Positions 1-20,111 are shown, counted from the stretch's first letter. The stretch: 64,000 nucleotides of DNA from Patescibacteria group bacterium (GCA_041671305.1 JBAZBX010000002.1:5193-69192); one strand, 5' to 3'. The notes: generated from the sequence alone by a model not told the origin. Numbers and translations: made by a program.

Positions 1-105
1 CCAGGCACTCCTCACTTCTATATCAACAACCAAGAAATTTCCGGAGTCGGGTCTATTGATGACTTCAAAAAGTTAATTGATGCTGAATTAAATAGAAAAA
101 ATTAA
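1..105 (+). CDS. 3' end of a thioredoxin-fold DsbA-like protein (partial, start outside window)
   Basis: Frame-1 translation PGTPHFYINNQEISGVGSIDDFKKLIDAELNRKN* matches the conserved C-terminus of DsbA/BdbD-type oxidoreductases. Compare GTPTFFVNGKKLEG in the DsbA-like protein at 46256-47152. Confidence 0.4.
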   Translation, partial: PGTPHFYINNQEISGVGSIDDFKKLIDAELNRKN

Positions 106-119
106 ATTTATTATAAGAA

Positions 120-1334
120 ATGAAAAAAATCTTCATTATTTTATTTTTAATATTATTTTTGTCAACTGGATGGGCAGCTTTAGCAGCCGAAGATGGCACA
201 GCACCAGTACCAAATATTCCGCCAGAATCAGATACGCCAGCAACACCCTCTTTATATACCGGCGATGACATTCAACCGGCCGGAGAAAATGGTCCAACTC
301 CTCTAGCTCCTCAAGCCGCTCCAGCTCCTGCCGCCAAAACAGAAACTCCCAAAACCGAGTCGGCTCCCCTCTACTGGATTCCAAACGTAGGTATGGGTCA
401 GTTTACTCAGGGTACAGCTGTAGAGGTTAGTGCTGGCAGAAATATCTTGGGAGAGTATATTAGTCTCTGGTACACTTTCTTGGTAGGTGTGGCTGGATTA
501 TTGGCTATGGTCATGATAGTATTTGGAGGAGTAAACTGGCTTACTTCCGGGGGAAGTTCTAGTGCCATAGGAGACGCCAAGAAGACTATTTCTTCTGCTT
601 TGATTGGATTAACTTTAGCTTTGCTTTCTTATGTTTTATTGCAAATTATTAATCCTAACTTGCTGAGTCTCAAGATGCCTTCTATGGCCAATATTACTTA
701 TAGCGGGGATTATGCGATACCCCATATCAACATGGCACCTGGAGGAGCGACTTTAGCTAATGGAGCTAACGGAATGCCTGTACCTTATCAATCAGGAGCC
801 AAAATACCTTGCAACCAAGCCATGGATTACAATCAAGCATTTACTGCCTCGTATGAAGGATATAACTCCACTCCTTACGCTGACCAACATGGTTATACCT
901 ACGGTTTTGGACACAACAGCAACGAAAATCCCGGAACAGTAGATTATAATACCGAATTGCAATGGTTTACCAATAATTACAATAACACTTATTATCCCGG
1001 AGCTGCGACTGCCTATACCAATGCCGGTGGCAACTGGGACACATTGCCACAACAAGACCAAGCAGTACTTGCCGATACCGCCTACCAATTTGGAACAAAT
1101 TCTTCCTTTCTCTCTCAAACGGCGACTTTTATGGCTCAAGGAGATATGACGGGAGCCGCTTCATTTATGCGAAGTAATTATAAAAATTACTTTAAGACAG
1201 ATCCGGGAAAAGGCGTAGCCAGTAGAATAAATAGTAATGCCAGCATTGTTGAAAATAAAGATCCATCAACTGGAACGGCAAGTGATGGCGCGCAGCAATT
1301 TAATGATAGAGCATCATCCTCATGTCAAAAATAA
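120..1334 (+). CDS. Exported protein with an N-terminal signal peptide, Pro-rich linker and two-TM VirB2/TrbC-pilin-like hairpin, fused to a C-terminal T4-type (GH24) lysozyme domain
   Basis: Signal peptide MKKIFIILFLILFLSTGWAALAA. TM1 LWYTFLVGVAGLLAMVMIVFGG, loop GGSSSAIGDAKKT, TM2 ISSALIGLTLALLSYVLLQII. The C-terminal SYEGYNSTPYADQHGYTYGFGH aligns with the T4 lysozyme catalytic core EGxxxxxYxDxxGYxTIGIGH. It is followed by a typical GH24 helix region, AVLADTAYQFG...FMAQGDMTGAASFMRSNY. Confidence 0.6.
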   Translation: MKKIFIILFLILFLSTGWAALAAEDGTAPVPNIPPESDTPATPSLYTGDDIQPAGENGPTPLAPQAAPAPAAKTETPKTESAPLYWIPNVGMGQFTQGTAVEVSAGRNILGEYISLWYTFLVGVAGLLAMVMIVFGGVNWLTSGGSSSAIGDAKKTISSALIGLTLALLSYVLLQIINPNLLSLKMPSMANITYSGDYAIPHINMAPGGATLANGANGMPVPYQSGAKIPCNQAMDYNQAFTASYEGYNSTPYADQHGYTYGFGHNSNENPGTVDYNTELQWFTNNYNNTYYPGAATAYTNAGGNWDTLPQQDQAVLADTAYQFGTNSSFLSQTATFMAQGDMTGAASFMRSNYKNYFKTDPGKGVASRINSNASIVENKDPSTGTASDGAQQFNDRASSSCQK

Positions 1335-1343
1335 TTTTAACAC

Positions 1344-2411
1344 ATGAAAAATAATCATTTTTTTATATTAAATACTTTAGCCTTCTTGATTATTTTATCT
1401 ATTCCCTCTATTAGCAATGCTGCTACAAGTTGTTATTGTCATGAAATTGATACTTCTGGTGAAGGCGGTGGCAGTTATTACAAAACTACCTGTCCGGATG
1501 CTAGTTGTAAACAAGGAAATTGTAAATATGACAAATGCGCTCCAGACACAACTCCGATAACGGAAATAGATAGTTATGAACCAAAAGCCGCTCCTGCCGC
1601 CAAAACAGAAACTCCCAAAACCGAGTCGGCTCCCCTCACCTGGATTCCAAACGTAGGCATGGGTCAATTTACTCAAGGTACGGCTGTAGAAGTTGGTGCT
1701 GGCAAAAATATCTTGGGAGAGTATATTAATCTCTGGTACACTTTCCTGGTGGGCGTGGCTGGATTGCTGGCTATGGTTATGATAGTATTTGGAGGAGTAA
1801 ACTGGCTTACTTCCGGGGGAAGTTCTAGTGCTATAGGAGATGCCAAGAAGACTATTTCTTCTGCTTTGATTGGTTTAACCTTGGCTTTGCTTTCTTATGT
1901 TTTGTTGCAAATTATCAATCCCAACTTGCTTAGTCTCAAAATGCCTTCTATGGCCAATATTACTTATAGCGGGGATTATGCGATACCTGCAATAAACCTT
2001 GAGGATGAGATGTCTGCCAATTCTCAAACCGGCGGAGGATCAGCCAATTTATCTACGCTAAAATCTGACATGTCAAAAACTAACCAATCTGTTTTGAATC
2101 AAGTCAAAAAAAATAACCCCGATGCAAAAACGCCTAGGGTAAATAGTACCGCCAGAGATAGCAATGATTTACATGGGCTCAATAGAGCCGTGGACTATCA
2201 AAAAGGAGATGACGCCACTTTTGATGCTTATATGAACAATCTGATAAATGAAGGCACGTATACTGGCTATGGACAAGATAAAGGAGAGCCTTTTTATTAT
2301 GTAAAATTCCCAGACGGAACAAAAGGAAGGGTCGGTAATGGCTCAGGCCATTGGCACATTGATAATTGCCAGCAAGGTGAAGTGCCGATCCAAGGTAAAG
2401 GAGCATGCTAA
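1344..2411 (+). CDS. Paralogue of the preceding gene: signal peptide, Cys-rich N-terminal knot, the same two-TM pilin-like module, and a C-terminal LAS/M15-type zinc-peptidase-like domain
   Basis: The core from AAPAAKTETPKTESAPL to SGDYAIP is nearly identical to gene 120-1334 (about 93% nt identity, 1590-1987 versus 330-722). The C-terminus carries HGLNRAVD (HxxxxxxD) and GHWHID (HxH), the zinc-ligand signature of LAS/peptidase-M15 VanY-like cell-wall hydrolases. The N-terminal CYCHEIDTSG...CPDASCKQGNCKYDKC is cysteine-rich. Confidence 0.5.
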   Translation: MKNNHFFILNTLAFLIILSIPSISNAATSCYCHEIDTSGEGGGSYYKTTCPDASCKQGNCKYDKCAPDTTPITEIDSYEPKAAPAAKTETPKTESAPLTWIPNVGMGQFTQGTAVEVGAGKNILGEYINLWYTFLVGVAGLLAMVMIVFGGVNWLTSGGSSSAIGDAKKTISSALIGLTLALLSYVLLQIINPNLLSLKMPSMANITYSGDYAIPAINLEDEMSANSQTGGGSANLSTLKSDMSKTNQSVLNQVKKNNPDAKTPRVNSTARDSNDLHGLNRAVDYQKGDDATFDAYMNNLINEGTYTGYGQDKGEPFYYVKFPDGTKGRVGNGSGHWHIDNCQQGEVPIQGKGAC

Positions 2412-2415
2412 AATT

Positions 2416-3753
2416 ATGTCAAAAATAAACACCATCTTCACCTGTTCCAACTGTGGCGCCCAATATCCAAAATGGCAAGGGCGCTGTTTAGAATGCGGAA
2501 AATGGGGAACCATGGAAGAAGGCCTAGCAGAAAAAAATGAACAAAGAAATTCAAATATTCCACCAGACAAAGTCATTAATTTAAATGAACTCAAAAATAT
2601 TCCTGATTTTCGCCTGGAGACCAAAATCTCTGAATTAGACGGCGTACTCGGCGGTGGCATAGTCAAAGGCGCTCTGATTCTTCTCGGCGGCGATCCTGGG
2701 GTTGGCAAATCCACTTTGGCCCTGCAGATTGCCCAGAACATCAATGGCACACTTTATATCTCCGGCGAGGAATCCGCCAATCAAATAAAAATCAGGGCAG
2801 AGAGACTAAAAATTAATCTGGATAAATTGAAATTCTTGGCGCAAACGAACATAGAAAAAATCCTCTCCACCATTGAAGCCCAAAAACCGCCACTCGTCAT
2901 AGTAGACTCCATTCAAACCATGATTTCTTCCGAAGCCACGGGATCATCCGGATCGGTAAGCCAGATAACTTCCGTGGCCAGCCAACTCATAGGTCTAGCC
3001 AAAAAAATAGAAATTCCTATTATCATAATCGGCCACGTCACCAAAGATGGCATAGTCGCCGGCCCCAAAACCTTGGAACATCTTGTTGATGTAGTATTGT
3101 ATTTGGAAAATGATAATCAGAATTATTACAAAATACTTCGCGGAGCCAAAAACCGCTTCGGCTCAACCGGAGAAATCGGCATCTTTGAGATGACTTCTAC
3201 CGGCCTCAAAGAAACTCTTAATTCGTCCAATATTTTTCTGGAAGACTCAAACCAATCAACTTCTTCTGGCACGGCTATTTCTGCCGTTCTTGAAGGAAGC
3301 CGGCCATTTCTAATTGAAATCCAAGCCCTGACCTCCAAAACTTCCTTCGGCTATCCTCAAAGAAAATCAACCGGATATGATCTCAATCGCTTGCAAATGA
3401 TCATTGCCGTGCTTTGCAAAATAGCCAAGATAAATCTCACCAACCAAGATATTTATCTCAACGTAACGGGCGGGCTCAAAGTCAAAGACACGTCCATTGA
3501 TTTAGCGGTGGCCATGTGTATCGTCTCCGCTTTCTTGGATATTCCCATAAACAAAAAAACAATTCTCTTTGGAGAATTGGGTCTTTCCGGTGAAATAAGA
3601 ACTGTTCCTCAACCAGAAAAAAGAATCAAGGAAGCGGAAAAGCTGAAATTTGAAAAAATTATCATGCCATATTATCCGACCATGAAATACGGAACAGGCA
3701 AAATTGCCGTCAGAGACATCAGAGAAGCGATTAAAACAATAAACAGTAAGTAA
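2416..3753 (+). CDS. radA: DNA repair protein RadA/Sms
   Basis: N-terminal C4 zinc finger CSNCGAQYPKWQGRCLECGKW. Walker A GGDPGVGKSTL. RadA-specific KNRFG motif (LRGAKNRFGSTGEIGIF). Lon-protease-like C-terminal domain. Start taken at the ATG at 2416 (MSKINTIF), which avoids the overlap the track ORF (from 2338) makes with the upstream gene. Confidence 0.9.
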   Translation: MSKINTIFTCSNCGAQYPKWQGRCLECGKWGTMEEGLAEKNEQRNSNIPPDKVINLNELKNIPDFRLETKISELDGVLGGGIVKGALILLGGDPGVGKSTLALQIAQNINGTLYISGEESANQIKIRAERLKINLDKLKFLAQTNIEKILSTIEAQKPPLVIVDSIQTMISSEATGSSGSVSQITSVASQLIGLAKKIEIPIIIIGHVTKDGIVAGPKTLEHLVDVVLYLENDNQNYYKILRGAKNRFGSTGEIGIFEMTSTGLKETLNSSNIFLEDSNQSTSSGTAISAVLEGSRPFLIEIQALTSKTSFGYPQRKSTGYDLNRLQMIIAVLCKIAKINLTNQDIYLNVTGGLKVKDTSIDLAVAMCIVSAFLDIPINKKTILFGELGLSGEIRTVPQPEKRIKEAEKLKFEKIIMPYYPTMKYGTGKIAVRDIREAIKTINSK

Positions 3754-6967: not shown

Positions 6968-8623
6968 ATGAAACTATTTAATAAAGTTTCAATGGCTGTA
7001 TTGGCCGTGGTATTTATGCTTGGTCTGACCGAGCCAACTGTCACCTTGGCAGCTTCCATGCCACTATTGGGTGCCGCGGAGAATTTCTCGGTCTTGGCCG
7101 GCTTATCAATGAGTGCTGCCGCCGCTGGCACCACCATTTCCGGTAATTTAGGTCTCAGCCCTGGCCTGGCTGTTTCAAGAACCGGCCCCTGGACGGTAGG
7201 CGGTACTGAATATTTCGGCACCACGCCTTCCTTGTCCGCAACTGCTCAAGTTGATGCCTTAGCAGCTTACAACAACCTGGCAGGACAAAGCTCTAATGGG
7301 TCATGGGGCACAAGTCCATGGAGCCCAACACCGGGTACCTATACTGTGGCTAGTGATGTTACATTCACTGGAACAATTACTCTTAACGGCGGTTATGACG
7401 ATGTCTGGATTTTTCAGGTTGGACGTGATATGACTTTTGATGGTTCGGTGGTTCTCACCGGTAATGCCCAGCCATGCCATGTTTTTTGGCAAATAGATAG
7501 AAGTGCGACTATAGCTTCGGGCAGTAATTTTGTCGGGACTCTTATCGCCTCAACGGGCAGTGTCACTTTGGTTTCCGGCGCAACAGTTAACGGCCGAATT
7601 ATGGTGCTCAATGCCTCTTTAACGACCGATGGCAATACTATTTCCGGACCAACCTGCCTAGTTGCGCCCACTCCAGCTCCCACCTGCACTCTTTCTGCTT
7701 CTCCTAATCCAGTTGATTATAATGGTACTTCTGCCATTACCTGGTCTTCAACTGATGCCACCGCTTGTACCGCCTCAGGCGGATCTACTGGCTGGACCAG
7801 TATCAGTGGTTCCTCTGGTGCCTGGACTTCTGGCGCTTTAACCCTAGGCTCTACATATTCCATGACTTGCACTGGTCCTGGTGGCACCTCGCCTCAATGC
7901 AATGTTGCAGTAACCGTGAATCCCGCACCTGATCCCGCGATTCTTCATGTCATTAAACATGTTATTAATAATAGCGGTGGCTCAACATTAGCTCCTGGCT
8001 TCAGCGTACACGTAAAAGATGACTCAGGGGATGTCGCCGGAAGCCCAGCTAGTCCGCAAGCGGGAGCAGAAGATCCAGGAACTACTTATACTTTGGATGC
8101 TGGCACTTATACCGTCAGTGAAGATACTAATACTTCTTATGTGCGAACTTTTGGCGAGGACTGTAATGCTATTACCGGTATTATCACTCTTGCCCCTGGT
8201 GAGGAAAAAACTTGTACCATTACCAATGACGATATTGTGCCCGCTCCGCCGGTCTCCACGATTATTGTCGCAAAAGTTGTTGTCGGTGGAACTAAGCTCC
8301 CCGATGCTTTTAATCTGTTTGTCGATGGTGCGCCGGTTCTTCGCAATGTGGCCAATGTTTTTTCTGTCGGTGCGCATGTTGTGAGTGAAACCGTTGATAC
8401 CAACTACACTCGCACTTTTGCCCTTGATTGTCTAAGTGGCAGCGTGACTCTTATCGCGGGTGACAACAAGACCTGCATCATTACCAATACCTATAAAGCA
8501 CCTTCATCCGGTGGCGGTTCTTACTCTCCACCTGTTCCACCGCTTATTGATGTGGTAAAAGTTCCCAGTCCCCTGGCTTTGCCTGTCGGTCCTGGTTCGG
8601 TGACCTACACTTACACACTTTAA
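6968..8623 (+). CDS. Surface protein, N-terminal portion: signal peptide, Thr/Ser/Gly-rich beta-rich region and a DUF11-like repeat. The ORF is interrupted by an in-frame TAA, and the same frame continues into 8657-9337.
   Basis: Signal peptide MKLFNKVSMAVLAVVFMLGLTEPTVTLAA. The C-terminal repeat PPLIDVVKVPSPLALPVGPGSVTYTYTL* aligns with PPLIHVTKLPSPLTLPASGGMVTYTYTVTNPGTVPL of the next ORF. Both ORFs are in the same frame (both starts are 2 mod 3). Confidence 0.5.
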   Translation: MKLFNKVSMAVLAVVFMLGLTEPTVTLAASMPLLGAAENFSVLAGLSMSAAAAGTTISGNLGLSPGLAVSRTGPWTVGGTEYFGTTPSLSATAQVDALAAYNNLAGQSSNGSWGTSPWSPTPGTYTVASDVTFTGTITLNGGYDDVWIFQVGRDMTFDGSVVLTGNAQPCHVFWQIDRSATIASGSNFVGTLIASTGSVTLVSGATVNGRIMVLNASLTTDGNTISGPTCLVAPTPAPTCTLSASPNPVDYNGTSAITWSSTDATACTASGGSTGWTSISGSSGAWTSGALTLGSTYSMTCTGPGGTSPQCNVAVTVNPAPDPAILHVIKHVINNSGGSTLAPGFSVHVKDDSGDVAGSPASPQAGAEDPGTTYTLDAGTYTVSEDTNTSYVRTFGEDCNAITGIITLAPGEEKTCTITNDDIVPAPPVSTIIVAKVVVGGTKLPDAFNLFVDGAPVLRNVANVFSVGAHVVSETVDTNYTRTFALDCLSGSVTLIAGDNKTCIITNTYKAPSSGGGSYSPPVPPLIDVVKVPSPLALPVGPGSVTYTYTL

Positions 8624-8656
8624 AATATCGGTACCGTTCCGGTAACTAATTTAACA

Positions 8657-9337
8657 ATGGTAGATGATAGCTGTAGTTCCACAACCCTTGCTTCTGGTGA
8701 TAGCAATGGCGACGCCAAACTTGATGTGAATGAAACCTGGACATATAACTGCTCTACAACACTCTCAACAACTCATACCAACACCGTCGTCGCCACTGGC
8801 TGGGCCAATGGCATCAGCGCAATTGATATCGCCAGCGCTACGGTCGTGGTCGGAGCGCCAGTCGTGCCACCGCTTATCCATGTGACAAAGCTTCCTAGTC
8901 CGCTGACGCTACCTGCTAGCGGAGGAATGGTTACTTATACATATACAGTAACTAATCCTGGTACCGTTCCATTAAGCAATGTCAGTATTACTGACGATAA
9001 ATGTACCGGCTTGCCTGGTCGTGTTGTGGGACATCCTGGAGACATCAATAAAAATGACCTACTTGAAAGCAATGAGACTTGGATATTTACTTGTAAATCC
9101 AATCTCACCAAAACCACAACTAATACCGCCACAGCAAGCGGTGAAGCTAATGGTTTGACTGCGAAAGATTATGCCATTACCACTGTTGTGGTGGCTGCTG
9201 CGGCCGTTCCTAAATTACCAAATACAGGATCTTTTTTTGAGGGCAATACTGTGCAATGGATTATGGCTATGTTGGCTGGCCTTCTCATCTTGGTTTCTGT
9301 CTCAGTTGCTCTGATTCTAAAAAAACGTACGATTTAG
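8657..9337 (+). CDS. Surface protein, C-terminal portion with an LPXTG cell-wall sorting signal. The ORF begins with codons read after an in-frame TAA, so it is a probable continuation of 6968-8623.
   Basis: DUF11-like repeat (VTYTYTVTNPGTVPLSNVSITDDKC...). C-terminal LPNTG motif, then a hydrophobic stretch WIMAMLAGLLILVSVSVALIL and KKRT, which is the canonical sortase-substrate architecture. Confidence 0.5.
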   Translation: MVDDSCSSTTLASGDSNGDAKLDVNETWTYNCSTTLSTTHTNTVVATGWANGISAIDIASATVVVGAPVVPPLIHVTKLPSPLTLPASGGMVTYTYTVTNPGTVPLSNVSITDDKCTGLPGRVVGHPGDINKNDLLESNETWIFTCKSNLTKTTTNTATASGEANGLTAKDYAITTVVVAAAAVPKLPNTGSFFEGNTVQWIMAMLAGLLILVSVSVALILKKRTI

Positions 9338-9357
9338 TTTAAATATTCTAAAGGTAG

Positions 9358-9388
9358 GAAAGACCCCGCCTTAACGGGGTCTTTGTGT
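9358..9388 (+). terminator. Stem-loop between the LPXTG substrate gene and the sortase gene (terminator or attenuator)
   Basis: aaagaccccgccttaacggggtctttgtgtt has a perfect 8-bp GC-rich stem (gaccccg...cggggtc) with a T-containing tail. It lies immediately 5' of the sortase ATG at 9390. Confidence 0.4.
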
Positions 9389-9389
9389 T

Positions 9390-10031
9390 ATGAAATCCAT
9401 GCGATCTAAAATTTCATTTAAAAAATTATTTTTTATTGTTAATATTTTTGCAATTATATTTTCTGCAATAGTTATTGTTTCTCTCTCATGTGCTCTGCCG
9501 GTTTCTAATTCCCATGCCAATGGTTATGTTTCACAAAATTTGGTTAATGGCGCCTCAGCTGAGTCTACTCAGATTATGGGTCAGACAGTCCTAACTATAC
9601 GTCTCAAAATTCCCAAAATAAAAGTGGATACTGCTCTGGAATCTGTAGGTCTGACAGCTCAAGGAGCAGTAAACGTGCCTAAGGGACTTACCAACGCTGC
9701 TTGGTTCAATCTTGGGCCTCATCCCGGAGAAAATGGCAATGCGGTTATTACCGGTCATTATGGGATTTGGAAAAACGGTACGCCAACAGTATTCAATAAT
9801 TTATATAAATTACGTCCAGGTGATAAATTATATATTGAAAATGAAAAAGGGGAAATTATTACTTTTGTGGTAAGAGAAAGTAGAAATTATAACCCAAATA
9901 CGGACGCTTCAGACATATTCATTTCAAATGATGGCAAGTCGCATCTTAATCTCATCACCTGTGAAGGAGCTTGGAATAAAGTTTCTAAAAGTTATCCCAA
10001 ACGACTAGTGGTATTTACTGATAAAGAATAA
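9390..10031 (+). CDS. Sortase (transpeptidase)
   Basis: N-terminal TM anchor. Catalytic His region VITGHY. TLxTC-type catalytic Cys motif NLITCEG. Conserved Arg downstream. It is adjacent to an LPNTG-bearing substrate. Confidence 0.8.
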   Translation: MKSMRSKISFKKLFFIVNIFAIIFSAIVIVSLSCALPVSNSHANGYVSQNLVNGASAESTQIMGQTVLTIRLKIPKIKVDTALESVGLTAQGAVNVPKGLTNAAWFNLGPHPGENGNAVITGHYGIWKNGTPTVFNNLYKLRPGDKLYIENEKGEIITFVVRESRNYNPNTDASDIFISNDGKSHLNLITCEGAWNKVSKSYPKRLVVFTDKE

Positions 10032-10455: not shown

Positions 10456-11193
10456 CTATCCTCTTGCCATGGCAAAGCCATAAATCTTCTCAAAACCAGC
10501 CCCTTTTAAGGTTCTAGCGCATTCCTGCATTGTCGCGCCTGTTGTATAGACGTCATCTACCAATATAACTTCTTTGGGTAAATCCTCTTTCCAATTTATA
10601 TCAGAAATTAATTTAAAACAACCCTTTATGCTTTCTTTTCTTTTTTCTACATCCAACATTGCTTGGTGTTTACCATATCTCTTTCTGGCAATAATCTTAT
10701 CACAAATATTATTCCCTCTGACTTTATTCAAAATATTACCAATTATTATGGACTGATTAAATCCTCTCTCCAAATATCTGCGCTTATGCAAAGGCACCGG
10801 GATCAAAATAGCCTCCTCTGGCCAAAATCTTTCTCGTTCAAAATATTTCATAATCATCTTCTCCCAAACCTCACTGAGAGCATCGCAATAGCTATATTTA
10901 ATTAAGTGTATGACTTCTTTTACTAATTTATTATGATAATTAGACACTACCCACAAACCAGAGATTACCGACTCACCCACGCAATTCGGGCAAACCGTCG
11001 GAAAATCAATCTCCCTATTGCAAATCGGACAACAAAAATTATTTTTTATAATTATGGAGTCCAGACACTTGTCACAAATAAAATTATCAAATTCATGGCA
11101 ACCCAAACATCTTTTGGGAAACAACAAATCATGAGCTAATTCAGAAAGAGCAGTAATACTACTGCCAAATGGCATCGTCAACTTTCCATTCAT
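10456..11193 (-). CDS. comF: ComF family protein (ComFC-like phosphoribosyltransferase-fold competence protein)
   Basis: N-terminal double zinc ribbon (LLFPKRCLGCHEF...CDKC...CPICNREIDFPTVCPNCVG). C-terminal PRTase motif VILVDDVYTTGATMQECARTL. The true start is probably the Met of MPFGSS (about 11175). Confidence 0.7.
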   Translation of the reverse strand: MNGKLTMPFGSSITALSELAHDLLFPKRCLGCHEFDNFICDKCLDSIIIKNNFCCPICNREIDFPTVCPNCVGESVISGLWVVSNYHNKLVKEVIHLIKYSYCDALSEVWEKMIMKYFERERFWPEEAILIPVPLHKRRYLERGFNQSIIIGNILNKVRGNNICDKIIARKRYGKHQAMLDVEKRKESIKGCFKLISDINWKEDLPKEVILVDDVYTTGATMQECARTLKGAGFEKIYGFAMARG

Positions 11194-11743
11194 TGCCGAC
11201 TTTTATAAATGATAATTTTAAGTTTTTGTATGAAATAACCGGCTCTAATCCATTTCCGGTTGAAATCGTTCTCTGAGCTTGCACCACAATAATGGCGCTA
11301 CTGACTTCGGAACTGATTAAATCTGCACTCAATCCCCTGGTAGTTATTCCCTGGAATGTATCTACACTGCTGGTAGACGCTCGTTCCATGGCTATGGCAT
11401 CGTTTATGGTTTTCTGCATTTTGTCACTCATAAATGGCTTTAAGTCATCAAGATTTTTGAATTTCTGATCTGTAGAGTAACTTCCATATCTTTCCGAAAA
11501 AGAAAGCGCCAATTGCTTAAGTCCCAAAGGATATTTTTTTTCTTCAGCCACACGTACCGGACTAGAGACTGGAAGTACGGCGGAACCATTGCCAGTTGAA
11601 ACTGTTTGTGAATTATTATTATTCTGAGAATTAATTGGTTGATTGACGTTTTTTGTACCAAAGATAAGCCAAATAATAAACGCCAGTAAAACTATTACCG
11701 CTACGACCAACAAAGTAATGATAATTCTTTTTCTATTATCCAT
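11159..11743 (-). CDS. Membrane-anchored exported protein, possibly a VirB8/TcpC-like T4SS component
   Basis: Single N-terminal TM segment IITLLVVAVIVLLAFIIWLIF, a Ser/Asn-rich linker, then an approximately 120-aa domain ending in beta-strand-rich LKLSFIKVGNEWKVDDAIW (NTF2-like feel). The gene lies directly downstream of the VirB4 gene. The family assignment rests on position and architecture only. Confidence 0.3.
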   Translation of the reverse strand: MDNRKRIIITLLVVAVIVLLAFIIWLIFGTKNVNQPINSQNNNNSQTVSTGNGSAVLPVSSPVRVAEEKKYPLGLKQLALSFSERYGSYSTDQKFKNLDDLKPFMSDKMQKTINDAIAMERASTSSVDTFQGITTRGLSADLISSEVSSAIIVVQAQRTISTGNGLEPVISYKNLKLSFIKVGNEWKVDDAIWQ

Positions 11744-11759
11744 ATTTAATAATATTAGC

Positions 11760-13700
11760 TTAAATTAATTTTTTCTCTTCTTCCGGCGTTTGTTCTTGAG
11801 CCAATGACTCATCAAATTCTTTCTTGGCCGCTTCAATTTCCAACAACTGCCTTGGATCAGAAGTAATTAATTGATCTTCAGAGTATGATGCTACCACTTT
11901 GATAGCGGCGTGCTTCGCTCCGGCAAAAAATATTCCTTCGCCTACCCCGCCTTCCAAAAGCAAATATTTTTCTCCTTCGGTCAACATGAAAGTTTTTTGA
12001 ATCAGACTTATAGCCGCCGGAGATTGTTTGAGAAGCAATTGAAGAGATGAATTATTTACAATCGCCTGACCATAGGGTGAAGTCAAAAAGTCATTTACGT
12101 CTTGGGTGATAGTGGTTACTCCGAGATAATACTTACGACAACGCTTGACTAAGGCAAAAATAAATTTAGCCGAATCTTCTCTTTGCATCAGCCACCAAGC
12201 TTCATCAACAATCAAAATCCTTTTTTTCATCTGAGATCTGACTACATTCCAGATATAATTAACAATAGTATAAATTGCCAGCGGTTTGAGCTCATCTTCC
12301 AAGTCTCTGACACTGAAAACCACCAACTGATTGTTCATCTCCACATTGGTCGGCTGATTGAGTAATCCGGCAAAAGTGCCTTCGGTATATTTCTTGAGCC
12401 TGAGTGAAATATCTGCCGCTCCTTCCATACCTTCCAAAATCTCCTGAAAATCCTGCAGAATTGGCGGCTCAATTTTGGTTAAATCAGCATTAGCCGTGAT
12501 GTCTTTCTTGGCATAAGTCTCCAAAAGCGCTCTATCAATAATAGAATCTTCTTCATAAGTGACATTACCGATCATCAGTCTTATCAATCCTTTGACCGTA
12601 ATTACTCCGCTTCGGATAATATCTTCCGCTTTTGAATCCTCACCCATGGCGCGAGGCAAATCAAACGGATTAATCTTGCTTTCAGAATTAAGCGAGATAT
12701 CCACATAAGTGCCTCCGACAGCATCACACAAATGCTTGTATTCTCTTTCCGGATCTATAATTATCACTTCCGTGCCAAACATCAAACTTCTAAGTACTTC
12801 CAGCTTGATGGCATATGATTTTCCGGCGCCGGAAGTGGCAAAAACTACCGCATTGGCATTTTGCAATGAGAAACGATCAAACAAGATTAGGCTGTTATTG
12901 TGCCTATTTATGCCATAAAGGATTCCCTTATCAGAAGACAAATCCGAAGACACAAACGGGAAAGAACTTGCTGCCGGCGAAGTGTTCATATTGACCAGAA
13001 TATTTAACTCGTCAAAAGCTAGTGGCAAAGTGGAATTAAACCCCTGTTCCGATTGATAAAATACTCTCTTGGAATAAACCAGATGCGAACCGAAAAAATT
13101 CTCTATCCTCTCCGAGACTTGATCCAAATCTTCCAGCTTCTTGGCATAAAGAGTGACATACAAGGCGGTTTGAAAAAAATGCTCCACGCCCTGAGTCAAG
13201 TCGTCTCGGAGTTTTTCCATATCACGGAGGGCGGTTTCTGCCAGAGGATCCCTGGGCGCTCCTTTTTCTGCCGAGGAGATAAGTCCGGCCTCCACATTTC
13301 CCACTTTTTTCTTGAGTTGTTTAAGGATGACTGGAGTTTTGACAGGGTAGAAATAAAACGACATGTCGGCCACCACATCCATGTTGATAATCGGCGCAAA
13401 CCAGCCAATGGAAATATATCGCGGATATTGCACCACAAAAATAGTCCTGACAAACATCTCGCCAAGCTTGATATGCGAAGAAGTCACCTCCAAAGCCGCC
13501 GGCGCAATCAAATCTCTAACCGAAACTACGCCCTGGCGATAAATCCTTTCTTCTTCCAATAGTTCCTGAGCGGAAGCAATTTGTTCCTGTTCCAAAAACT
13601 TCTGTTGTTGGGGCGTCAATTTTGGCACCACAACAGCTTCCGGCTGAGGCAAGTTACTTTTGTTTATATCTTGAGGATCAAACATAATTATTTTCTTCAA
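11760..13700 (-). CDS. virB4: Type IV secretion/conjugation ATPase, VirB4/TrbE/CagE family (C-terminal ATPase portion)
   Basis: Walker A VFATSGAGKSYAIK. Walker B RILIVDEAWWLM. Conserved VirB4 blocks (IIDPEREY, ITQDVNDF). The track start is a TTG; an ATG (MFDPQD) lies 5 codons in. Confidence 0.85.
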   Translation of the reverse strand: MKKIIMFDPQDINKSNLPQPEAVVVPKLTPQQQKFLEQEQIASAQELLEEERIYRQGVVSVRDLIAPAALEVTSSHIKLGEMFVRTIFVVQYPRYISIGWFAPIINMDVVADMSFYFYPVKTPVILKQLKKKVGNVEAGLISSAEKGAPRDPLAETALRDMEKLRDDLTQGVEHFFQTALYVTLYAKKLEDLDQVSERIENFFGSHLVYSKRVFYQSEQGFNSTLPLAFDELNILVNMNTSPAASSFPFVSSDLSSDKGILYGINRHNNSLILFDRFSLQNANAVVFATSGAGKSYAIKLEVLRSLMFGTEVIIIDPEREYKHLCDAVGGTYVDISLNSESKINPFDLPRAMGEDSKAEDIIRSGVITVKGLIRLMIGNVTYEEDSIIDRALLETYAKKDITANADLTKIEPPILQDFQEILEGMEGAADISLRLKKYTEGTFAGLLNQPTNVEMNNQLVVFSVRDLEDELKPLAIYTIVNYIWNVVRSQMKKRILIVDEAWWLMQREDSAKFIFALVKRCRKYYLGVTTITQDVNDFLTSPYGQAIVNNSSLQLLLKQSPAAISLIQKTFMLTEGEKYLLLEGGVGEGIFFAGAKHAAIKVVASYSEDQLITSDPRQLLEIEAAKKEFDESLAQEQTPEEEKKLI

Positions 13701-14403
13701 GTTTTAATTTATCAACATCTCCTAATTTCTCGCTACGTGAGACTACGGGATTATAAGTATTGTAGAATAATTCTATCAGCGATTGAGTATCCAAAACCGT
13801 CGCTCTCAGCCCCATGCCGGATAATCCGGAGAGAATCTTGTCCAGCAAAGTGAATAAATCCCTATGCCTCTGGGAAAATTGCTTCTGTCCCAAACTGATG
13901 ATATTGGTCGGAGAAAGCACATCACCTGTTCTGGCCCAAAATCCTCTCTTGCCATTGGAAGACGGATCATAGGGCACGACTACATAAAACCTTTTGGTCA
14001 TGATATCGCCCAACTCAACCAATTGGGAAATATATTGATAATATTCTGAAATTTGTAATTTGAGCAATTCGTTGGTCTGAATTTTTTCCGCCTCTTTGAT
14101 AGAAACAAGATATTCATCCAAATCCAACTTTCTGGATTGAACCAAAATTTGAAGCGGTGAATCCAACAAATTCAAAAAACTGATATACCCAGAGATAATA
14201 GCCGACTGCTCGTCTTCCGACTTGAGGGCAAAATTAATACTGGAAACCAGAAGAACCGCCCGAAGCGTTCCGTCTTTGAGCACAACACAATCATCACGGA
14301 TTTCAGCGATATGCATCCGGCTTTGCGTGGATGGTGTCTTGTTGGTAGCAACTTTGTCTGGCATATTTTTATCTTTCTCCTGTGTATACCCCGCCCGTAT
14401 CAA
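13678..14403 (-). CDS. VirB4 N-terminal domain, encoded as a separate ORF overlapping the ATPase ORF
   Basis: IAEIRDDCVVLKDGTLRAVLLVSSINFALKSEDEQSAIISGYISFLNLLDSPLQILVQSRKLDLDEY matches the conserved N-terminal block of Gram-positive-type VirB4 proteins (PrgJ, TcpF, TraE). The TGA stop at 13678-13680 overlaps the downstream ATG (ATGTTTGA) in a different frame. Confidence 0.55.
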   Translation of the reverse strand: MIRAGYTQEKDKNMPDKVATNKTPSTQSRMHIAEIRDDCVVLKDGTLRAVLLVSSINFALKSEDEQSAIISGYISFLNLLDSPLQILVQSRKLDLDEYLVSIKEAEKIQTNELLKLQISEYYQYISQLVELGDIMTKRFYVVVPYDPSSNGKRGFWARTGDVLSPTNIISLGQKQFSQRHRDLFTLLDKILSGLSGMGLRATVLDTQSLIELFYNTYNPVVSRSEKLGDVDKLKLEENNYV

Positions 14404-14842
14404 TAATCAAGGCGAGTTCAGATATTTTTGAATTAGATAATGGTTGTCTGGCCATTTTTACAACCGGAATCCTGTGTTCTTTCGGTTTTTTGAGGCTGGC
14501 CTTAATCTCGTCTCTGGATATTTTCTTTTTCCAAACTTTTAACTTGGGATTTTTCAATGTAGAAATAAAATTAAGCAGAAAATAATGAAATGGCTGGCCA
14601 TTGATAGTGGCAAAAGCGATGACGATGGTAAGTGACAAAACGATTAATCCAGAAACTATAAATAATGAGAGATCAAAAATTTTATAAAAAATAAATATTA
14701 TCAACCCTCCGATAAGCATTTCAATAAATTGCCTCACGGTGATAGGTCCGATAACTTTGTCCTCTACGTCCAAAAATTGTGGCACGACTACTTGTTCCAT
14801 AAAAATTAATAAATTTAATAACCGATAATCAAGAAACAACAA
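14369..14842 (-). CDS. Small two-TM membrane protein, PrgI/VirB3-like candidate
   Basis: 157 aa. Hydrophobic helices LIGGLIIFIFYKIF and LFIVSGLIVLSLTIVIAFATI. It lies immediately upstream of, and overlaps, the VirB4 N-domain ORF, as VirB3/PrgI does in T4SS operons. Confidence 0.35.
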   Translation of the reverse strand: MLFLDYRLLNLLIFMEQVVVPQFLDVEDKVIGPITVRQFIEMLIGGLIIFIFYKIFDLSLFIVSGLIVLSLTIVIAFATINGQPFHYFLLNFISTLKNPKLKVWKKKISRDEIKASLKKPKEHRIPVVKMARQPLSNSKISELALIIDTGGVYTGER

Positions 14843-14894
14843 TCAAAGGAATTCTTATATTTTGGTTATTGTTTCTTGTGTTTTGATTATTATC

Positions 14895-16670
14895 TCAGTA
14901 TCTCAATTCGCTATTTAATTGCATCACAGCATCAAATTCTTCCAAGGATAACGTTGGTTTCCCAGATACTAGACGCTCTTTAATTATATCATCTATGCTC
15001 CGACCTTCTGTCATGCTAGTCTGCCCCAGCAATCTGTAAAACCGATTTACCTCATTGCCAAACCAGGCATTTATCCCCTCTATTCGACGCGCATATGATT
15101 CTTCCTGCAATAACTTTATTTTCTCTCTAATTGATCTCGTCGCCTCAACCGGATTGGAAGCCAAGCGACGAAAATCTATCAAAGTCATATCAGACAATTC
15201 TTCAATGGGGCCGGTCAGCTTTTTAGCTAATTTAATGCCGTCAACTATGGGCCTTCTAGTATTCTGAGATTCAAGCACCCTCTGAGGAATATTCTTCTGC
15301 ACAACATAAGGCGCAGGACGTGGCAAAGGAGCTGATTCTGACTGTTTGAGACTGACGGGAACACTGACAGGAATGGATTTTTCTTCAACAAAATTATTTA
15401 CTAAATTATTCTTCAAGCTTGCCTCAATGATATCATCATTACTTTCTAATTTTTTTTCTGAAATAAGTGAAGCAGGTGGAATATTGATTGGAACCGGTTT
15501 TTTAGCTTCCTCTTTCTTCTCTTCGCCGATGTCATCCAATTTTACGATTTTCGGTTTAACCATCAAATCTTCCGGCATGCGGAGTATGGGCAAACCATCT
15601 TCCTCATCCATAATCGGAGCTGGACTAACCTCTGCTGTAATTTTATTTTGCGAATCAAAACTATCTATCTTGGCAACTTCGGGCTGCTTCGGAGCAACGG
15701 GAACATTTTTTATCTCTGGTAATGTCGGAGGGACTGCTTGCTTGGACAACTCAGCCTGTGGCGAAACAATTGGAATAGGTTCTACAGAAACAGACACTGA
15801 AGAATTGGTTCCCTGTCTTCTCATCTCCTCTGCCCTTTTCTCTTGCAAAGTTTTGACCTTGACTTCGGCTTTTTCAAATTGCGGTATTTTTGGCTTAAAT
15901 TCTATCCTTTGTATCGCATCTCCGCCAGAAATATGATACTCCTTGAATGTTTCCTGCTCTTTCTTAATTAGTCCCAGCAATTCCGTCGCCTGCTCTTTGG
16001 TAAATTCCATTCCGCCTATCTTCTGACTCTTGGTCAAGGCTTCTATGCTCTCTATCTCATCACGCACGTCACGGAATCTTGAAATAATAATATTGGATAA
16101 TCTTTTGTGCAAGATCTCGTCACTTTCATTATACCCGAATTTGGAAATAATATCATCTGCCAAACTGTCATAATCAAGTTTATAGGTCTCCGCTTCCGGA
16201 ACAGCAATCTTTTTTAATTCTTCTTCATCCATGGTAGAAAAAGTCATGGACTTGGAATTATCCGTGATCACGGTCGGAGAACTATTTTGAGAACCAGCCG
16301 TTTCAGCCTTGATCAAGTAATCTTTGGGGGTCTTTTCTGATGGCTTTTTCTTTTTTATTTTTTTCTTCTTAACTGGTGGAGTACCGCCAAGACTTTTGAT
16401 AAATGATTCAACATCTCCCTTAATATATTTACGCATTGGCCAAAGCTGGTTTATGGCAATGGCCAAGGCTATTTGATTAATAGTCTCCGGCGACTGTTTG
16501 AGAAGACTCTTTCTTAAATTAGAAATTAAATCAGCTGAATTATCAGACCCCGCCCTCACTCTTGAACCACAAACATCAACATCATATAATTCCTGGTCAG
16601 ACAAATTAAAAGGAATAAACCAGGAATTAGTCTTCTTAATATCTTCAATTATTTTTGAATTTAATGACAT
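14895..16670 (-). CDS. Hypothetical Lys/Glu-rich protein (poly-Lys tract KKKKIKKKKP, coiled-coil-like) in the T4SS-like operon
   Basis: 591-aa ORF with no TM and no nucleotide-binding motif. It has a low-complexity Pro/Val/Lys-rich central region and a charged C-terminus. It sits between the VirB6-like and PrgI-like genes. Confidence 0.3.
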   Translation of the reverse strand: MSLNSKIIEDIKKTNSWFIPFNLSDQELYDVDVCGSRVRAGSDNSADLISNLRKSLLKQSPETINQIALAIAINQLWPMRKYIKGDVESFIKSLGGTPPVKKKKIKKKKPSEKTPKDYLIKAETAGSQNSSPTVITDNSKSMTFSTMDEEELKKIAVPEAETYKLDYDSLADDIISKFGYNESDEILHKRLSNIIISRFRDVRDEIESIEALTKSQKIGGMEFTKEQATELLGLIKKEQETFKEYHISGGDAIQRIEFKPKIPQFEKAEVKVKTLQEKRAEEMRRQGTNSSVSVSVEPIPIVSPQAELSKQAVPPTLPEIKNVPVAPKQPEVAKIDSFDSQNKITAEVSPAPIMDEEDGLPILRMPEDLMVKPKIVKLDDIGEEKKEEAKKPVPINIPPASLISEKKLESNDDIIEASLKNNLVNNFVEEKSIPVSVPVSLKQSESAPLPRPAPYVVQKNIPQRVLESQNTRRPIVDGIKLAKKLTGPIEELSDMTLIDFRRLASNPVEATRSIREKIKLLQEESYARRIEGINAWFGNEVNRFYRLLGQTSMTEGRSIDDIIKERLVSGKPTLSLEEFDAVMQLNSELRY

Positions 16671-16690
16671 TTTATCAAAAAATCTTTTAT

Positions 16691-19600
16691 TTAGGCTTGT
16701 TTAGGTTTAAAATTTTCCCACACCTCCGGATTATCCTGAAGCGCCTTCAGCATAATTTGTATCATTTTGAGATAAGCACTATCACCAGCGTCAACATAAC
16801 CATACATGCCCTTTTTAATCTTAAATTCTTTCATGATCTTTTCTCTAATTACCTCTAATTCCGCATCACTCAACTCATCTGCTTTTTTGCCATTACTGCC
16901 AGAACCAATGGCATTCCAAAGCAAATTAGTGGCTGCTTCATTACTTTTGTGTTTAGCCGCATTTCTGCGATAATTATATAATTTTGCTCCATTGGATTTA
17001 AGAGTAAAAGATTGAACTAATTTCAACGCACTGGCCATGGAACCCTTATTGTCACCCTCAGCCGGCGGAGGACCCATTTGTATGTTACCAAAATCAGATA
17101 CTGACAAACCGCCGATAAAAGAACCAACCATTTTATCTTCAAGAATTTTCATATCGGCATCATAATTAGTCCGGGCATAAAAATCTCCAGCCGTCTCCGC
17201 TAGTTTTTTCCTTTCCGCTAATTGTTCAGCCATGGCAATTAAATCAACCTTAGTACTACCTGTACTGACATGTTCTCCGCCCAAGCCAAAATTATCAGTT
17301 AAACGTTTATATTCCGCATCATAATTAGCCAACGCGTTTCCATTCTTATCGAACTCTTCCATAGAAGGCATAATGCCGTTATGAGCTGCGGCATACTCTT
17401 TCCTATGCTCATCTAATCTTTGCGCCCGATTCATGGTTGCGTCCACGAAAGCTTTCTTTGACAAAACTTTCTGATCTTCTATGGAACCCCTAATCGTCTT
17501 CATGGTGGATGCGCCACAAACATCACTTACATTTTCATAAATATCAGCCATGCCTTTCTGTATAGCCGCCCTCAATTCACCAGCCTCAGTGCCTTTTCCA
17601 GCTTTCTCTAATTGCTTAACCTCAGAAATACGCTCCTTAATACGACTAGAAATTTCACTTGCATTCTGAGTAACCAAATCCGCCAAAATATCCCTGCTTT
17701 CTTCGTTCATTGGCTTGTCACTGGAAGAATCATAAACAAGATGACTAAGTTGCTCTGTGCCAACAAGTCTATTTTTTAATAAAGCATTTCCAATAGTCAA
17801 AGTATTATCTTTATCTACTAAACCACTTTCCGAATCAACGGTCAATAAACTTCTAAGTTGTCCGAAGTCTAATTGTTTTCTAATTATTTCTTTGATTCCC
17901 TCATCTTGGAATTGCGCGAGGGTATTGGCAAGCGCTTTAGGATCAGCATCATGGAACCCATACATATATCTAATGAAAGAATTGATATCGGCTTTTTTTC
18001 CATTCTTCTTATATTCCTGCTCATCCGGTTCCAGCATAAAAGTATCAAATAGTTTTTGTAAACGACCATGTTCCTTCTCTCCTCCAGTATCAATCTTTCT
18101 AACAGCCTTATCTATATCATAGGTTCCAGACATAACTCCTTCCCGTAAATCCTTTTTACTGGTAGTATCCAAAGCTCTAGCCTGATGTCTAAAATATTTA
18201 TCCTTTAGATCACCAATTATTTTAGAATTGGCGCCGTTTAAATTAGTTTTTGTAAACAACTCTCCGAATACTTGGTTGGCTCTATTTTCTAAATTTTTAT
18301 CTAATGTAGGATTGGCAATAACCCTTCTGATGAGCTCTGGAGCAACTGCCATCTGCTGATCTATATTCCCCTTTTCAGCCATAGCAACGAGTTCTTCAGC
18401 GGTCATATCTTCTATTCTCTTTCTATTCACCAAAGCAGCATTACGCGCGGTTTCTTCATTTCGCTTTGTTCTAGCGCTCTTCATATTGGCAGTCATACGA
18501 GCAAAAGGCCTAGACAATAATGTACGCGCCAAAGGCACTTTATTAGCAAGCTTAAAACCAGTTCTAGCCAATCCTTCTCCTATTAATAATCTATCATTAA
18601 TTCCAGTAGCAATAGCTCCGCCCACGGCTCCAACGCCCCGTCCTATGCCTTTCGTCGCTCTCCAAGGCATGGCCTGGGCTCCCTTTCTGGCCTTATTTAA
18701 AAAACTCAAACTGCTTCCTGCCCAGGAAGCGCCGACAGCGCCGGTTTTTTGTCCCATCACCAGTGAAGCTACCAACATGCCAATAACCAAAGCAAAATTG
18801 ATTATACCCTCAGTGGACATTGCATTGGATAATACTATCATTTGTTTTGTGGATGATGTATTATCCACTATCTTATTACTAGCCCCTAATCCATTTATTA
18901 CATTTGCATCCTGATTTTTAGTAGTATTTCCACTAAATCCCATAATTACAAAGGAAATCCAAAGGAAAAATAGCATAATAGGCCCGACAATCAAATTTTT
19001 GCTCATCTCTGTCCACCATTGGCTGGCATACTGCTCGCCCTTTTTGAAAGTGGTAAGAAGGAAGGGCAAAGGAGAAAGCACGGTAAGAAACAAAAGCACC
19101 ACAATTCTATATATCAGTATGGCAATAATGGCCACCAGAACAGCAGCGGCCACCACACTAGCGATAAGCGCATAAACTAGAGCGGTAATAACATTTCCAA
19201 AACCTATTTCCTGACCTTCTACAGAAGTGTTAGCGGCACCATAATCCATATAACTACCCTTATCGCCGCCCATAAGATTATACATATCCGGAATACCCAG
19301 AGCAGAAAGAATAATATTGCCACCAGTAATTCCTTGGAGAGGCGCGGCGAAAGCCAGCATCAAAACTTGCGAAACATCAATCATCAAACCGCAAAACATC
19401 TTAGAAAAGTTGATCAATATGGCCATCACCAGTAATTTGGGCAATAATTCCTTTATTTGCCACTGCGGAATCTTGATAATGGTACCAATAGCAATAGCGA
19501 TAAGGATGACGATAAAAAAGTTATTGCACAGATCCCTGATCACCTTCCAGCCGTTGGTAACCGCATCCAAATGAGTATTTATAGGGTATGACATGACGGA

Positions 19601-20095: not shown

Positions 20096-20111
20096 TGTCT
20101 TTTAATTTAAT

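Follow-up and report, generated by a model that had tools for sequence, protein, structure and literature searches.

Tandem genes of a Patescibacteria genome fuse one VirB2-like pilin module to two different putative peptidoglycan hydrolases

Two adjacent genes of a Patescibacteria group bacterium, ultra-small and uncultivated, encoded proteins in which the same pilin-like two-helix module was fused to different C-terminal domains, a predicted GH24 lysozyme domain in gene 1 and a probable MT3-type LAS zinc-peptidase domain in gene 2. Fusions of the same kind recurred in related genomes, many of them beside T4SS (type IV secretion system) genes. The pair lies in a 64,000-nt stretch of a metagenome-assembled genome (GCA_041671305.1 JBAZBX010000002.1:5193-69192), hereafter the window, whose positions are counted from its first letter. 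We propose, and give the proposal an even chance of being right, that the two proteins are T4SS-associated, pilin-anchored wall hydrolases that take the role of VirB1. The families involved are known and their combination is new: a pilin module joined to a wall hydrolase, in complementary pairs, with modules evolving in concert, at a T4SS.

Gene 1 (120-1334, plus strand) is an open reading frame (ORF) of 404 amino acids (aa) with a signal peptide, a Pro/Ala-rich N-region, the pilin-like module, a linker of about 45 aa and the GH24 lysozyme domain. Gene 2 (1344-2411, 355 aa) followed on the same strand after 9 nt and displayed a signal peptide, an N-region with six Cys, the same pilin-like module, a linker and the MT3-type LAS-like domain. 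Proteins identical to both were on record, for gene 1 as 'hypothetical protein WC244_00745' at NCBI and 'GH24 family phage-r...' at JGI (P0001), and for gene 2 as 'MAG: pilin' at NCBI (P0003). In BLASTP, the two proteins aligned over aa 69-205 (gene 1) and aa 83-219 (gene 2), with 131/137 identities, and the rest of them stayed unaligned. The shared tract (324-722, aa 69-201 of gene 1; 1590-1988, aa 83-215 of gene 2; both on the plus strand) encompassed the linker APAAKTETPKTESAPL, a pre-helix segment, the two-helix hairpin and the post-helix segment NPNLLSLKMPSMANITYSGDYAIP. At the codon level, its copies shared 93.2% of nucleotides and 97% of amino acids over 133 codons, and differed by 22 synonymous and 5 non-synonymous changes (synonymous divergence, dS, 0.28; non-synonymous divergence, dN, 0.017). 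Similarity dropped abruptly at both edges of the tract, beyond which the flanks were unrelated. As the copies differed mostly at synonymous sites, and as four other independent assemblies displayed the same pattern, the shared tract is not an assembly artefact. The initial annotation had described this layout, a signal peptide and a common hairpin core between different flanks, with cores about 93% identical at 330-722 and 1590-1987; ORFs, BLASTP and hydropathy agreed with it, and its tract limits were essentially right.

The shared module matched the T4SS_pilin family (PF18895, VirB2-like), which Pfam recognised in gene 1 at aa 114-176 (30.5 bits) and in gene 2 at aa 126-190 (33.9 bits), both above the curated gathering cut-off of 26.6 bits. 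The NCBIfam search returned Mbov_0395 pilin-like matches alone, none of them significant. Simple hydropathy analysis placed three hydrophobic stretches in each protein, namely the signal peptide and two helices, separated by the short, positively charged, KK-containing loop WLTSGGSSSAIGDAKKTI. In gene 1 these stretches covered aa 1-25, 113-143 and 156-182, with the hairpin at 456-665 (plus strand), while the hairpin of gene 2 (1722-1931, plus strand) was formed by aa 127-157 and 170-196. AlphaFold2 (AF2) models, on which the topology also relies, placed the helices at aa 109-142 and 147-177 in gene 1 (predicted local distance difference test score, pLDDT, 71-76) and at aa 123-155 and 161-191 in gene 2 (pLDDT 72-81), and left the N-regions and linkers disordered (pLDDT below 50 at aa 180-227 of gene 1). 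The predicted topology is an out-in-out hairpin behind a Sec-type signal, with the C-terminal domains outside the cell. All Cys fell in segments predicted to lie outside: C231 and C402 in gene 1, and in gene 2 C342, C355 and the six Cys of the N-region (1422-1541, plus strand, aa 27-66; Cys 30, 32, 50, 55, 60 and 65), a Cys-rich motif kept in an orthologue (P0004). This confinement of Cys, together with the adjoining DsbA gene, supports the extracytoplasmic placement. The pilin-like fold, the outward C-termini and the Cys-rich N-terminus of gene 2, all put forward in the initial annotation, therefore found support in the Pfam matches, in hydropathy and in the placement of Cys, and the holin match that it had named as speaking against a pilin-like module was found neither in Pfam nor in PHROGs, which gave no match to any further membrane family either, nor did the module have any relative in 2.9 M viral contigs.

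Both proteins resemble VirB2/TrbC-type pilins, including the PF18895 arrays of Patescibacteria, in their signal peptide, two helices, basic loop, tandem layout and vicinity to virB4 (Quinonero-Coronel et al. 2025, PMC12102498; Wang et al. 2023, PMC10633639). Canonical PF18895 members differ in being about 100-140 aa long and ending just past helix 2, with 4-25 residues after the module, whereas 211 residues follow it in gene 1 and 148 in gene 2 and would form the enzyme; neither window protein ends shortly after helix 2. Published VirB2-like arrays also displayed much lower identity between paralogues (25% on average, 54% at most; PMC12102498) than the modules described here, which were 93-100% identical within a genome.

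This elongation could be read as that of a pro-pilin polyprotein, whose enzyme would be cleaved off past the INPxL/MPS segment like the tail of TrbC during maturation, yielding equal amounts of free hydrolase and mature short pilin. Short canonical T4SS_pilin proteins indeed ended 4-14 residues past INPxL, at the place where the long forms go on, N95 and P96 of this motif were invariant, and the linker that follows was predicted to be disordered at the positions given above. C-terminal processing is established for TrbC and VirB2. Neither a protease gene nor a cleavage motif was identified, however, and the conserved tract in the window ran 20 residues past the motif, which is unexpected for a junction that is to be discarded; we consider such processing improbable.

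The C-terminal domain of gene 1 (813-1250, plus strand, about aa 232-377) was accepted as a predicted GH24/T4-type lysozyme domain. Its T4-lysozyme-like string EGYNSTPYADQHGYTYGFGH holds the catalytic candidates E246 (nt 855), D255 (nt 882) and T260 (nt 897), which aligned with E11, D20 and T26 of T4 lysozyme (T4L) and were kept in two relatives (P0002 and P0007), one of which (P0007) carried PF00959+PF18895 on record. A profile of these three proteins matched T4 lysozyme chains of the PDB at E=6.6e-9, in an alignment that began at the catalytic Glu and took in the Asp and the Thr, and the GH24 assignment first made from the bare sequence was thereby upheld. The endolysin family PHROG 7 was matched by the whole protein (E=2.7e-5) and by the C-terminal domain alone (E=4.7e-5). 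Foldseek on the low-confidence model of gene 1 gave T4L, R21 and pesticin as top matches (probability 0.9-0.99, E>=0.17), with TM-scores of about 0.5 normalised to the target and a catalytic hairpin modelled at pLDDT below 50. Gene 1 thus shares with T4 lysozyme and other GH24 endolysins, including pesticin and the signal-arrest-release (SAR) endolysin R21, the Glu-Asp-Thr arrangement, a profile match and the top places in the fold search. It differs from them in its divergence, which leaves it below the Pfam threshold as a single sequence, in its chromosomal, T4SS-linked position and in the tether: its enzyme would be held permanently by a hairpin with the C-terminus outside, while GH24 endolysins are released by a holin or a SAR switch.

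The phage flavour of both catalytic domains raises the reading of a phage-derived lysis cassette, made of a holin-like or SAR-like membrane segment and an endolysin. GH24 and MT3-type LAS domains are typical of phage enzymes, and R21 stood among the fold matches. Against these likenesses stand the lack of any holin family match and of viral-contig relatives in the searches reported above, on which a phage or holin origin was rejected, as well as the surroundings of the pair, where no phage genes were found and the neighbours were chromosomal housekeeping and T4SS genes. Chromosomal synteny was moreover kept across many species, and a cleavable signal peptide followed by a hairpin that keeps the enzyme permanently outside is not a design for timing lysis. 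This reading is disfavoured and retains hardly any probability.

The C-terminal domain of gene 2 (2049-2378, plus strand, about aa 236-345, with S268, R271, H277, D284, H336-W-H338 and D340) can probably be counted, as a divergent member, among the MT3-type LAS zinc peptidases, as judged from convergent remote similarities. Neither the single sequence nor profiles of 7 and 9 members matched any Pfam, NCBIfam, PHROG or PDB hidden Markov model for this domain. When 1.84 billion representative proteins were searched exhaustively with HMMER, only four true relatives came up besides the gene 2 protein itself, and all four carried the same pilin module. Across nine members of the domain family, H277, A282, D284, W337, H338 and D340 were invariant, and R271 aligned in eight and lay one column off in the ninth. 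Foldseek ranked first the catalytic domain, of LAS fold, of VldE, an L,D-endopeptidase of pneumococci, which made up four of the top eight matches. In 50,697 phage records, tblastn gave weak matches, at TSAQRDSNDYHGQGKAVDF, only in tape-measure proteins of the Rhodococcus phages REQ1 (two records) and Madraxi. This segment is part of a domain found in 240 actinophage tape-measure proteins; a phmmer search of the REQ1 segment against the PDB gave nothing, and a profile of 11 members was needed to reach VldE, which it matched alone and at E=5.2e-9, with S-x-x-R, H-x6-D and H-x-x-H-V-H invariant. Aligned by hhalign, the gene 2 family matched this tape-measure MT3 profile with a probability of 87.9% (P=3.2e-6, 37 columns), a target that had been reached through a weak tblastn match, and VldE with a probability of 79% (P=1.6e-5), R271, H277 and D284 falling on R294, H301 and D308 of VldE; this support is moderate. 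The active site of VldE consists of S291, R294, H301, D308 and H373-x-H375 and represents the M15-type site of the 'MT3' LAS domain (PMC11667670); the order S268, R271, H277, D284, H336-x-H338 in gene 2 is the order of that site. The probable assignment therefore rests on three weak signals that converge, namely the Foldseek match to VldE, the phage tblastn match and the path from the tape-measure domain to VldE, together with the hhalign results.

Gene 2 resembles the MT3-type LAS domains of VldE (Spr1875 of Streptococcus pneumoniae) and of the actinophage tape-measure motif 3 in this S-x-x-R, H-x6-D, H-x-H order and in forming a small alpha/beta domain of about 110 aa. It differs from them in that only the N-terminal 26-37 columns aligned significantly and that H-x-x-H-V-H is replaced by (C/T/H)-W-H-(I/V)-D in the gene 2 family. 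The means of attachment differs as well: LysM attaches VldE, and the tape-measure motif lies inside a phage protein, while the gene 2-type domain was found on the pilin module only. The LAS/M15 peptidase of the initial annotation was thus retained as far as the LAS link goes, whereas its VanY-type families (PF02557, PF13539) gave no match. VanY/M15_4 was rejected for gene 2: its family was compared by hhalign with a Peptidase_M15_4 domain that Pfam recognised on this module in L054, and just HxxGxAxD aligned, without significance. Single-sequence PDB matches to OAA lectin and TLP-IPT were taken as chance, and the SH3-like PDB matches of the gene 2-domain profiles (E 0.05-1) were seen as a chance likeness of a beta-meander. 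A profile of the beta-rich second half of the domain (A.Y.YD.QP.YYV.FPDGT.GRVINE..N.WH) repeatedly gave weak matches to eukaryotic SH3 domains, probably also by chance.

The fusion was not confined to the window. Scanned for a pattern from a 5-member module alignment (an 11-member alignment was too little conserved), a set with one genome for each GTDB species returned 54 loci, essentially all from Patescibacteria (Kerfeld-, Buchanan-, Uhr-, Pacei-, Nomura-, Saccharibacteria and others). A local hidden Markov model search of these loci revealed 64 long pilin-module proteins, defined by at least 100 residues past the module; distant lineages had canonical short pilins of 90-180 aa. Pfam recognised T4SS_pilin in 61 of the 64 and TrbC/VirB2 in 7. 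At the C-terminus it found SLT (7 proteins), Peptidase_M23 (2), and SLT_2, SLT_4, Peptidase_M15_4/VanY, NlpC/P60, Peptidase_C39_2 and 3D (1 each), so that the recognisable C-terminal domains on the module were all wall hydrolases. The gene 2-type domain was present in 6 loci and the gene 1-type GH24 domain in 2. One relative of 598 aa (L005:9560-11356) harbored two full pilin modules in tandem (four helices), with nearly identical loops, followed by an SLT domain with ES...GLTQL. Full-text literature searches retrieved no paper describing a fusion of a pilin module with a wall hydrolase, and the initial opinion that the architecture had not been described holds for searchable papers. In databases, however, the PF18895+PF00959 combination is on record for a relative and annotation pipelines had already named the parts (gene 2 'pilin', gene 1 'GH24 family phage-r...').

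Among the relatives were much larger proteins (L037:7970-10990 and L043:9710-12181), such as one of 1006 aa, in which an N-terminal extension of 675 aa precedes the module, and one of 823 aa, whose C-terminal extension measures 646 aa. MAG contigs with third-party annotation and the title 'uncultured Gammaproteobacteria bacterium' (L011, L015-L017, L020, L023, L025, L033, L039, L043, L044) bore a Patescibacteria-type T4SS together with the pilin-fusion locus, and their Gammaproteobacteria labels are probably wrong.

The window encoded a T4SS block of Gram-positive type on the minus strand (11159-20095) that comprised orf194 (11159-11743), a VirB4-like ATPase (11760-13700), orf241 (13678-14403), a PrgI/VirB3-like protein (14369-14842), orf591 (14895-16670) and orf1134 (16691-20095); Pfam matched P-loop_TraG (E=2e-30) and PrgI (E=1.5e-7), and beside VirB4 and PrgI/VirB3 the block encoded conserved proteins without a named function. 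The T4SS noted earlier some 10 kb from the pair was thus confirmed as a VirB4/PrgI block at 11.2-20.1 kb, and its link to the pair became stronger through related loci that carry the pair right downstream of virB4. A virB4 gene lay within 10 kb in 31 related loci, and in about 27 of the 31 the fusion genes were co-directional with virB4 and just downstream of it. About 19 related loci displayed the order orf591-PrgI-orf241-VirB4-orf194-[pilin fusion]-(0-1 gene)-[pilin fusion]-RadA-RecG, and 8 further loci lacked orf194 between virB4 and the fusion gene that followed it. Inversion of the T4SS block and its placement after recG were seen in the window and in four relatives. By neighbouring genes, the nearest loci were an ENA metagenome scaffold (L002; RadA 90%, RecG 82%) and a Candidatus Buchananbacteria contig (L003; VirB4 90%).

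Upstream of the pair lay the 3' end of a DsbA/thioredoxin-like gene (1-105, plus strand, stop codon at 103-105), whose frame ends ...GTPHFYINNQEISG... / ...PGTPHFYINNQEISGVGSIDDFKKLIDAELNRKN before the stop; the fragment shared 65% identity with the last part of the gene that occupies this position in L001, for which Pfam Thioredoxin_4 and DSBA are on record, in agreement with the partial DsbA-like gene called initially, and a DsbA neighbour was also present in L004, L014 and L021. Downstream, radA (2416-3753, plus strand) has its likely start 5 nt past gene 2 and opens with the Zn-ribbon MSKINTIFTCSNCG; RadA homologues followed the pilin-fusion genes in most loci. This dsbA-gene1-gene2-radA string, outside the T4SS block, would suit housekeeping autolysins, that is, ordinary growth and division hydrolases on a pilin-related two-helix anchor, functionally unrelated to the T4SS. 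Patescibacteria genomes are small and need some autolysins. Such a role would nevertheless leave unexplained why the genes lie directly downstream of virB4 in the roughly 27 related loci, why the gene 2-type domain occurred on this module only among 1.84 billion representative proteins, and why the module evolves in concert, which a simple anchor does not account for; we hold it to be of low probability.

Concerted evolution of the module was apparent from five genomes with adjacent pairs (the window, L001, L003, L004 and L014), in which the 69-aa two-helix module was compared. Module identity was 93-100% within a genome and 48-83% between the five genomes, and averaged 39% between loci when all loci were included. 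The flanking domains followed a different course: the GH24 domains of the window and L001 were 64% identical over 192 aa while the modules of the same two were 52% identical, and the Cys-rich N-region and LAS domain of gene 2 were common to orthologues with differing modules. Tracts spanned 73-139 codons, with dS of 0.12-0.62 in the five adjacent pairs, and dN/dS was always <=0.11. This sequence pattern points to concerted evolution, by repeated gene conversion or module replacement under strong purifying selection. A single recent duplication as sole cause of the identical cores was rejected, the pair and its flanking orthologous domains being common to genomes with diverged modules. From the initial account, which combined recent duplication or gene conversion with domain shuffling, conversion and shuffling could be kept; recent duplication fits less well, in view of a pair and a synteny that are old and a core that was repeatedly homogenised. 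In another locus, two non-adjacent paralogues (L016:10034-10189 and L016:12807-12962) were identical over 52 codons at the amino acid level with dS of about 0.66 (18 synonymous, 0 non-synonymous changes), which suggests selection for identical hairpins beyond recent conversion.

In the role that we favour for the pair, that of pilin-anchored hydrolases of the T4SS, each protein would be made with a cleavable signal peptide, and its VirB2-like (T4SS_pilin) two-helix hairpin would insert into the cytoplasmic membrane, its short basic loop facing the inside. A flexible linker of about 45 residues would then hold the catalytic domain on the outer side of the membrane. The GH24 muramidase of gene 1 would cut the glycan strand, and the MT3-type LAS zinc peptidase of gene 2 would cut the peptide stem or cross-link. 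Both together would open the peptidoglycan locally where the T4SS is built, a job done elsewhere by VirB1, PrgK or TraG, and the pilin module would direct the enzymes to the T4SS and tether them there. Gene conversion and strong purifying selection may keep the paired modules near-identical, presumably as both must fit one partner, either the machinery or each other, while the N- and C-terminal domains are freely shuffled. The sequences show the architecture, the domain families, the placement outside the cytoplasm, the linkage to the T4SS, the recurrence and the concerted evolution; the activity of the enzymes, their targeting by the module and the wall that they would cut, whether of the epibiont or of its host, are what we infer.

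VirB1 of Agrobacterium, PrgK of pCF10, TraG of pIP501 and TcpG are likewise T4SS-encoded wall cutters, are membrane-anchored in Gram-positive systems and often cleave both glycan and peptide (PMC12102498), and relatives of the window pair carried SLT, M23 and NlpC/P60 domains as T4SS-associated hydrolases do. Known T4SS hydrolases have one N-terminal transmembrane or signal anchor and unite both activities in one polypeptide (SLT plus CHAP), whereas the window pair would distribute one activity to each protein, uses a pilin homologue as anchor and displays GH24 and MT3-LAS instead of SLT and CHAP. Pfam and profile searches gave no match in either window protein to the SLT or CHAP domains by which homology to VirB1, TrsG or CD419 would show.

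A precedent is known from Southlakia epibionticum, in which two essential genes lie directly downstream of virB4, one for a protein with a Hedgehog/DD-peptidase (LAS) domain and one for a lysozyme-like protein (PMC10633639 Table S2). By their descriptions, SEML1_0007 (Hedgehog/DD-peptidase) and SEML1_0006 (two lysozyme-like domains and a Cys protease) share the LAS/lysozyme pairing with the window pair, and the virB4 position with most relatives of that pair. They differ in being much larger (1113 and 643 aa) and in having no reported pilin module, in a genome with six separate short pilins. According to a survey of Patescibacteria T4SS, a recognisable VirB1 is missing from most of the genomes that have VirB2 homologues, and other glycosidases are a possible replacement for it (PMC12102498). 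The same survey counted VirB2-like genes by the PF18895 model and concluded that VirB1 is unneeded for pilus biogenesis; fusions were not mentioned (PMC12102498).

Several points weigh against pilin-anchored wall hydrolases at the T4SS. The window pair lies about 9 kb from virB4, on the opposite strand, and is co-transcribed with dsbA and radA and not with T4SS genes. About 40 of the 64 C-terminal domains matched no recognisable family, which makes 'always a wall hydrolase' an extrapolation. In the single-sequence Pfam search, the lysozyme domain of gene 1 reached 19.4 bits for Phage_lysozyme (PF00959) against a cut-off of 22.3 (E=1.3e-3). The LAS assignment of gene 2 leans on alignments of 26-37 columns and on a weak fold match (VldE, E=0.53, probability 0.35). 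The HxxxxxxD...HxH pattern of the initial annotation was present in gene 2 (H277-x6-D284 ... H336-W-H338) and its HxH is not family-wide, the first His being C, T or V before W-H in relatives. Finally, the overall confidence of the two AF2 models was low (mean pLDDT 53 and 60).

A bolder reading shares the enzymes and the T4SS with the proposal above and turns the anchors into pilus subunits. The modules would be polymerising VirB2-like subunits, which the T4SS would pull out of the membrane and build into a filament, decorated on its outside with lysozyme and peptidase on flexible linkers, that digests the wall of the host bacterium carrying the epibiont, and the identity of the modules would serve their co-polymerisation. 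The T4SS_pilin match of the module is bona fide, and neither the window nor the 10 kb around the long forms in related loci contained a detectable short canonical pilin. Both termini point outward in the VirB2 and TraA pilus structures. Identity within genomes combined with divergence between them fits a co-assembly constraint, one relative displayed two modules in one polypeptide before its SLT domain, and the nearest relatives of the LAS domain are phage tape-measure motifs that act on the wall of the target cell at injection. The T4SS and its pilins are also essential for epibiotic growth of S. epibionticum (PMC10633639). Yet pili have not been observed in this lineage, a domain of 15-20 kDa on every subunit would be sterically hard to fit on a VirB2-type lattice, and the known Gram-positive T4SS precedent consists of membrane-anchored hydrolases acting on the cell's own wall. 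Short pilins may also exist elsewhere in the genome, since the search covered the 64-kb window. We regard such an enzyme-bearing pilus as possible and on the doubtful side. Its most general form, in which the VirB2-like hairpin is a portable 'pilus-incorporation' module, several enzyme-bearing paralogues are polymerised into one filament that drills through the host wall, and co-polymerisation drives the concerted evolution, appears unlikely. If true, an enzyme-armed filament would be the first pilus of enzyme-bearing major subunits and would give a mechanistic basis to the essentiality of the T4SS in epibiotic ultra-small bacteria.

Much of bacterial diversity belongs to Patescibacteria, and in their one genetically tractable species the T4SS and VirB2-like pilins are essential on the host cell, for a job of the system that is unexplained (PMC10633639, PMC12857230). 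Pilin-anchored hydrolases of the T4SS would provide a concrete answer to the missing VirB1 in one large clade, which comprises relatives of Buchananbacteria, Kerfeldbacteria and Uhrbacteria, in the form of hydrolases fused to pilin-like proteins, arranged in glycan- and peptide-cutting pairs, with modules that co-evolve as a unit. Some 'pilin arrays' would be redefined, and testable enzyme candidates for opening the epibiont's or the host's wall would become available. The pair is, moreover, a clean case in nature of multidomain paralogues in which concerted evolution affects a single module. The finding nonetheless remains a domain-fusion variant of known components.

Other features of the window were observed alongside the pair. 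Between recG/orf167 and the T4SS block, a surface-protein cluster was inserted on the plus strand (6968-10031), which encoded an Ice_binding-like protein of 551 aa, a DUF7507/DUF11 protein of 226 aa and a sortase of 213 aa, and which was absent at that position in the closest syntenic loci (L001-L005). Two very large genes on the minus strand extended the T4SS block (16691-29756), one encoding 1134 aa without a Pfam match, with weak homologues at the same place in several related loci, and the other 3214 aa with CBM_4_9 at aa 949-1066. Farther along on the minus strand (35399-38908), a leucyl-tRNA synthetase of 1169 aa contained Pfam matches to NUDIX (aa 432-528) and to Ser_hydrolase / alpha-beta hydrolase (aa 621-786), located past the editing domain and ahead of the catalytic core's second half, both of which look like inserted extras. 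Cumulative GC skew fell monotonically over the window (1-64000) and most genes past 3.9 kb were on the minus strand; the window probably lies within one replichore.

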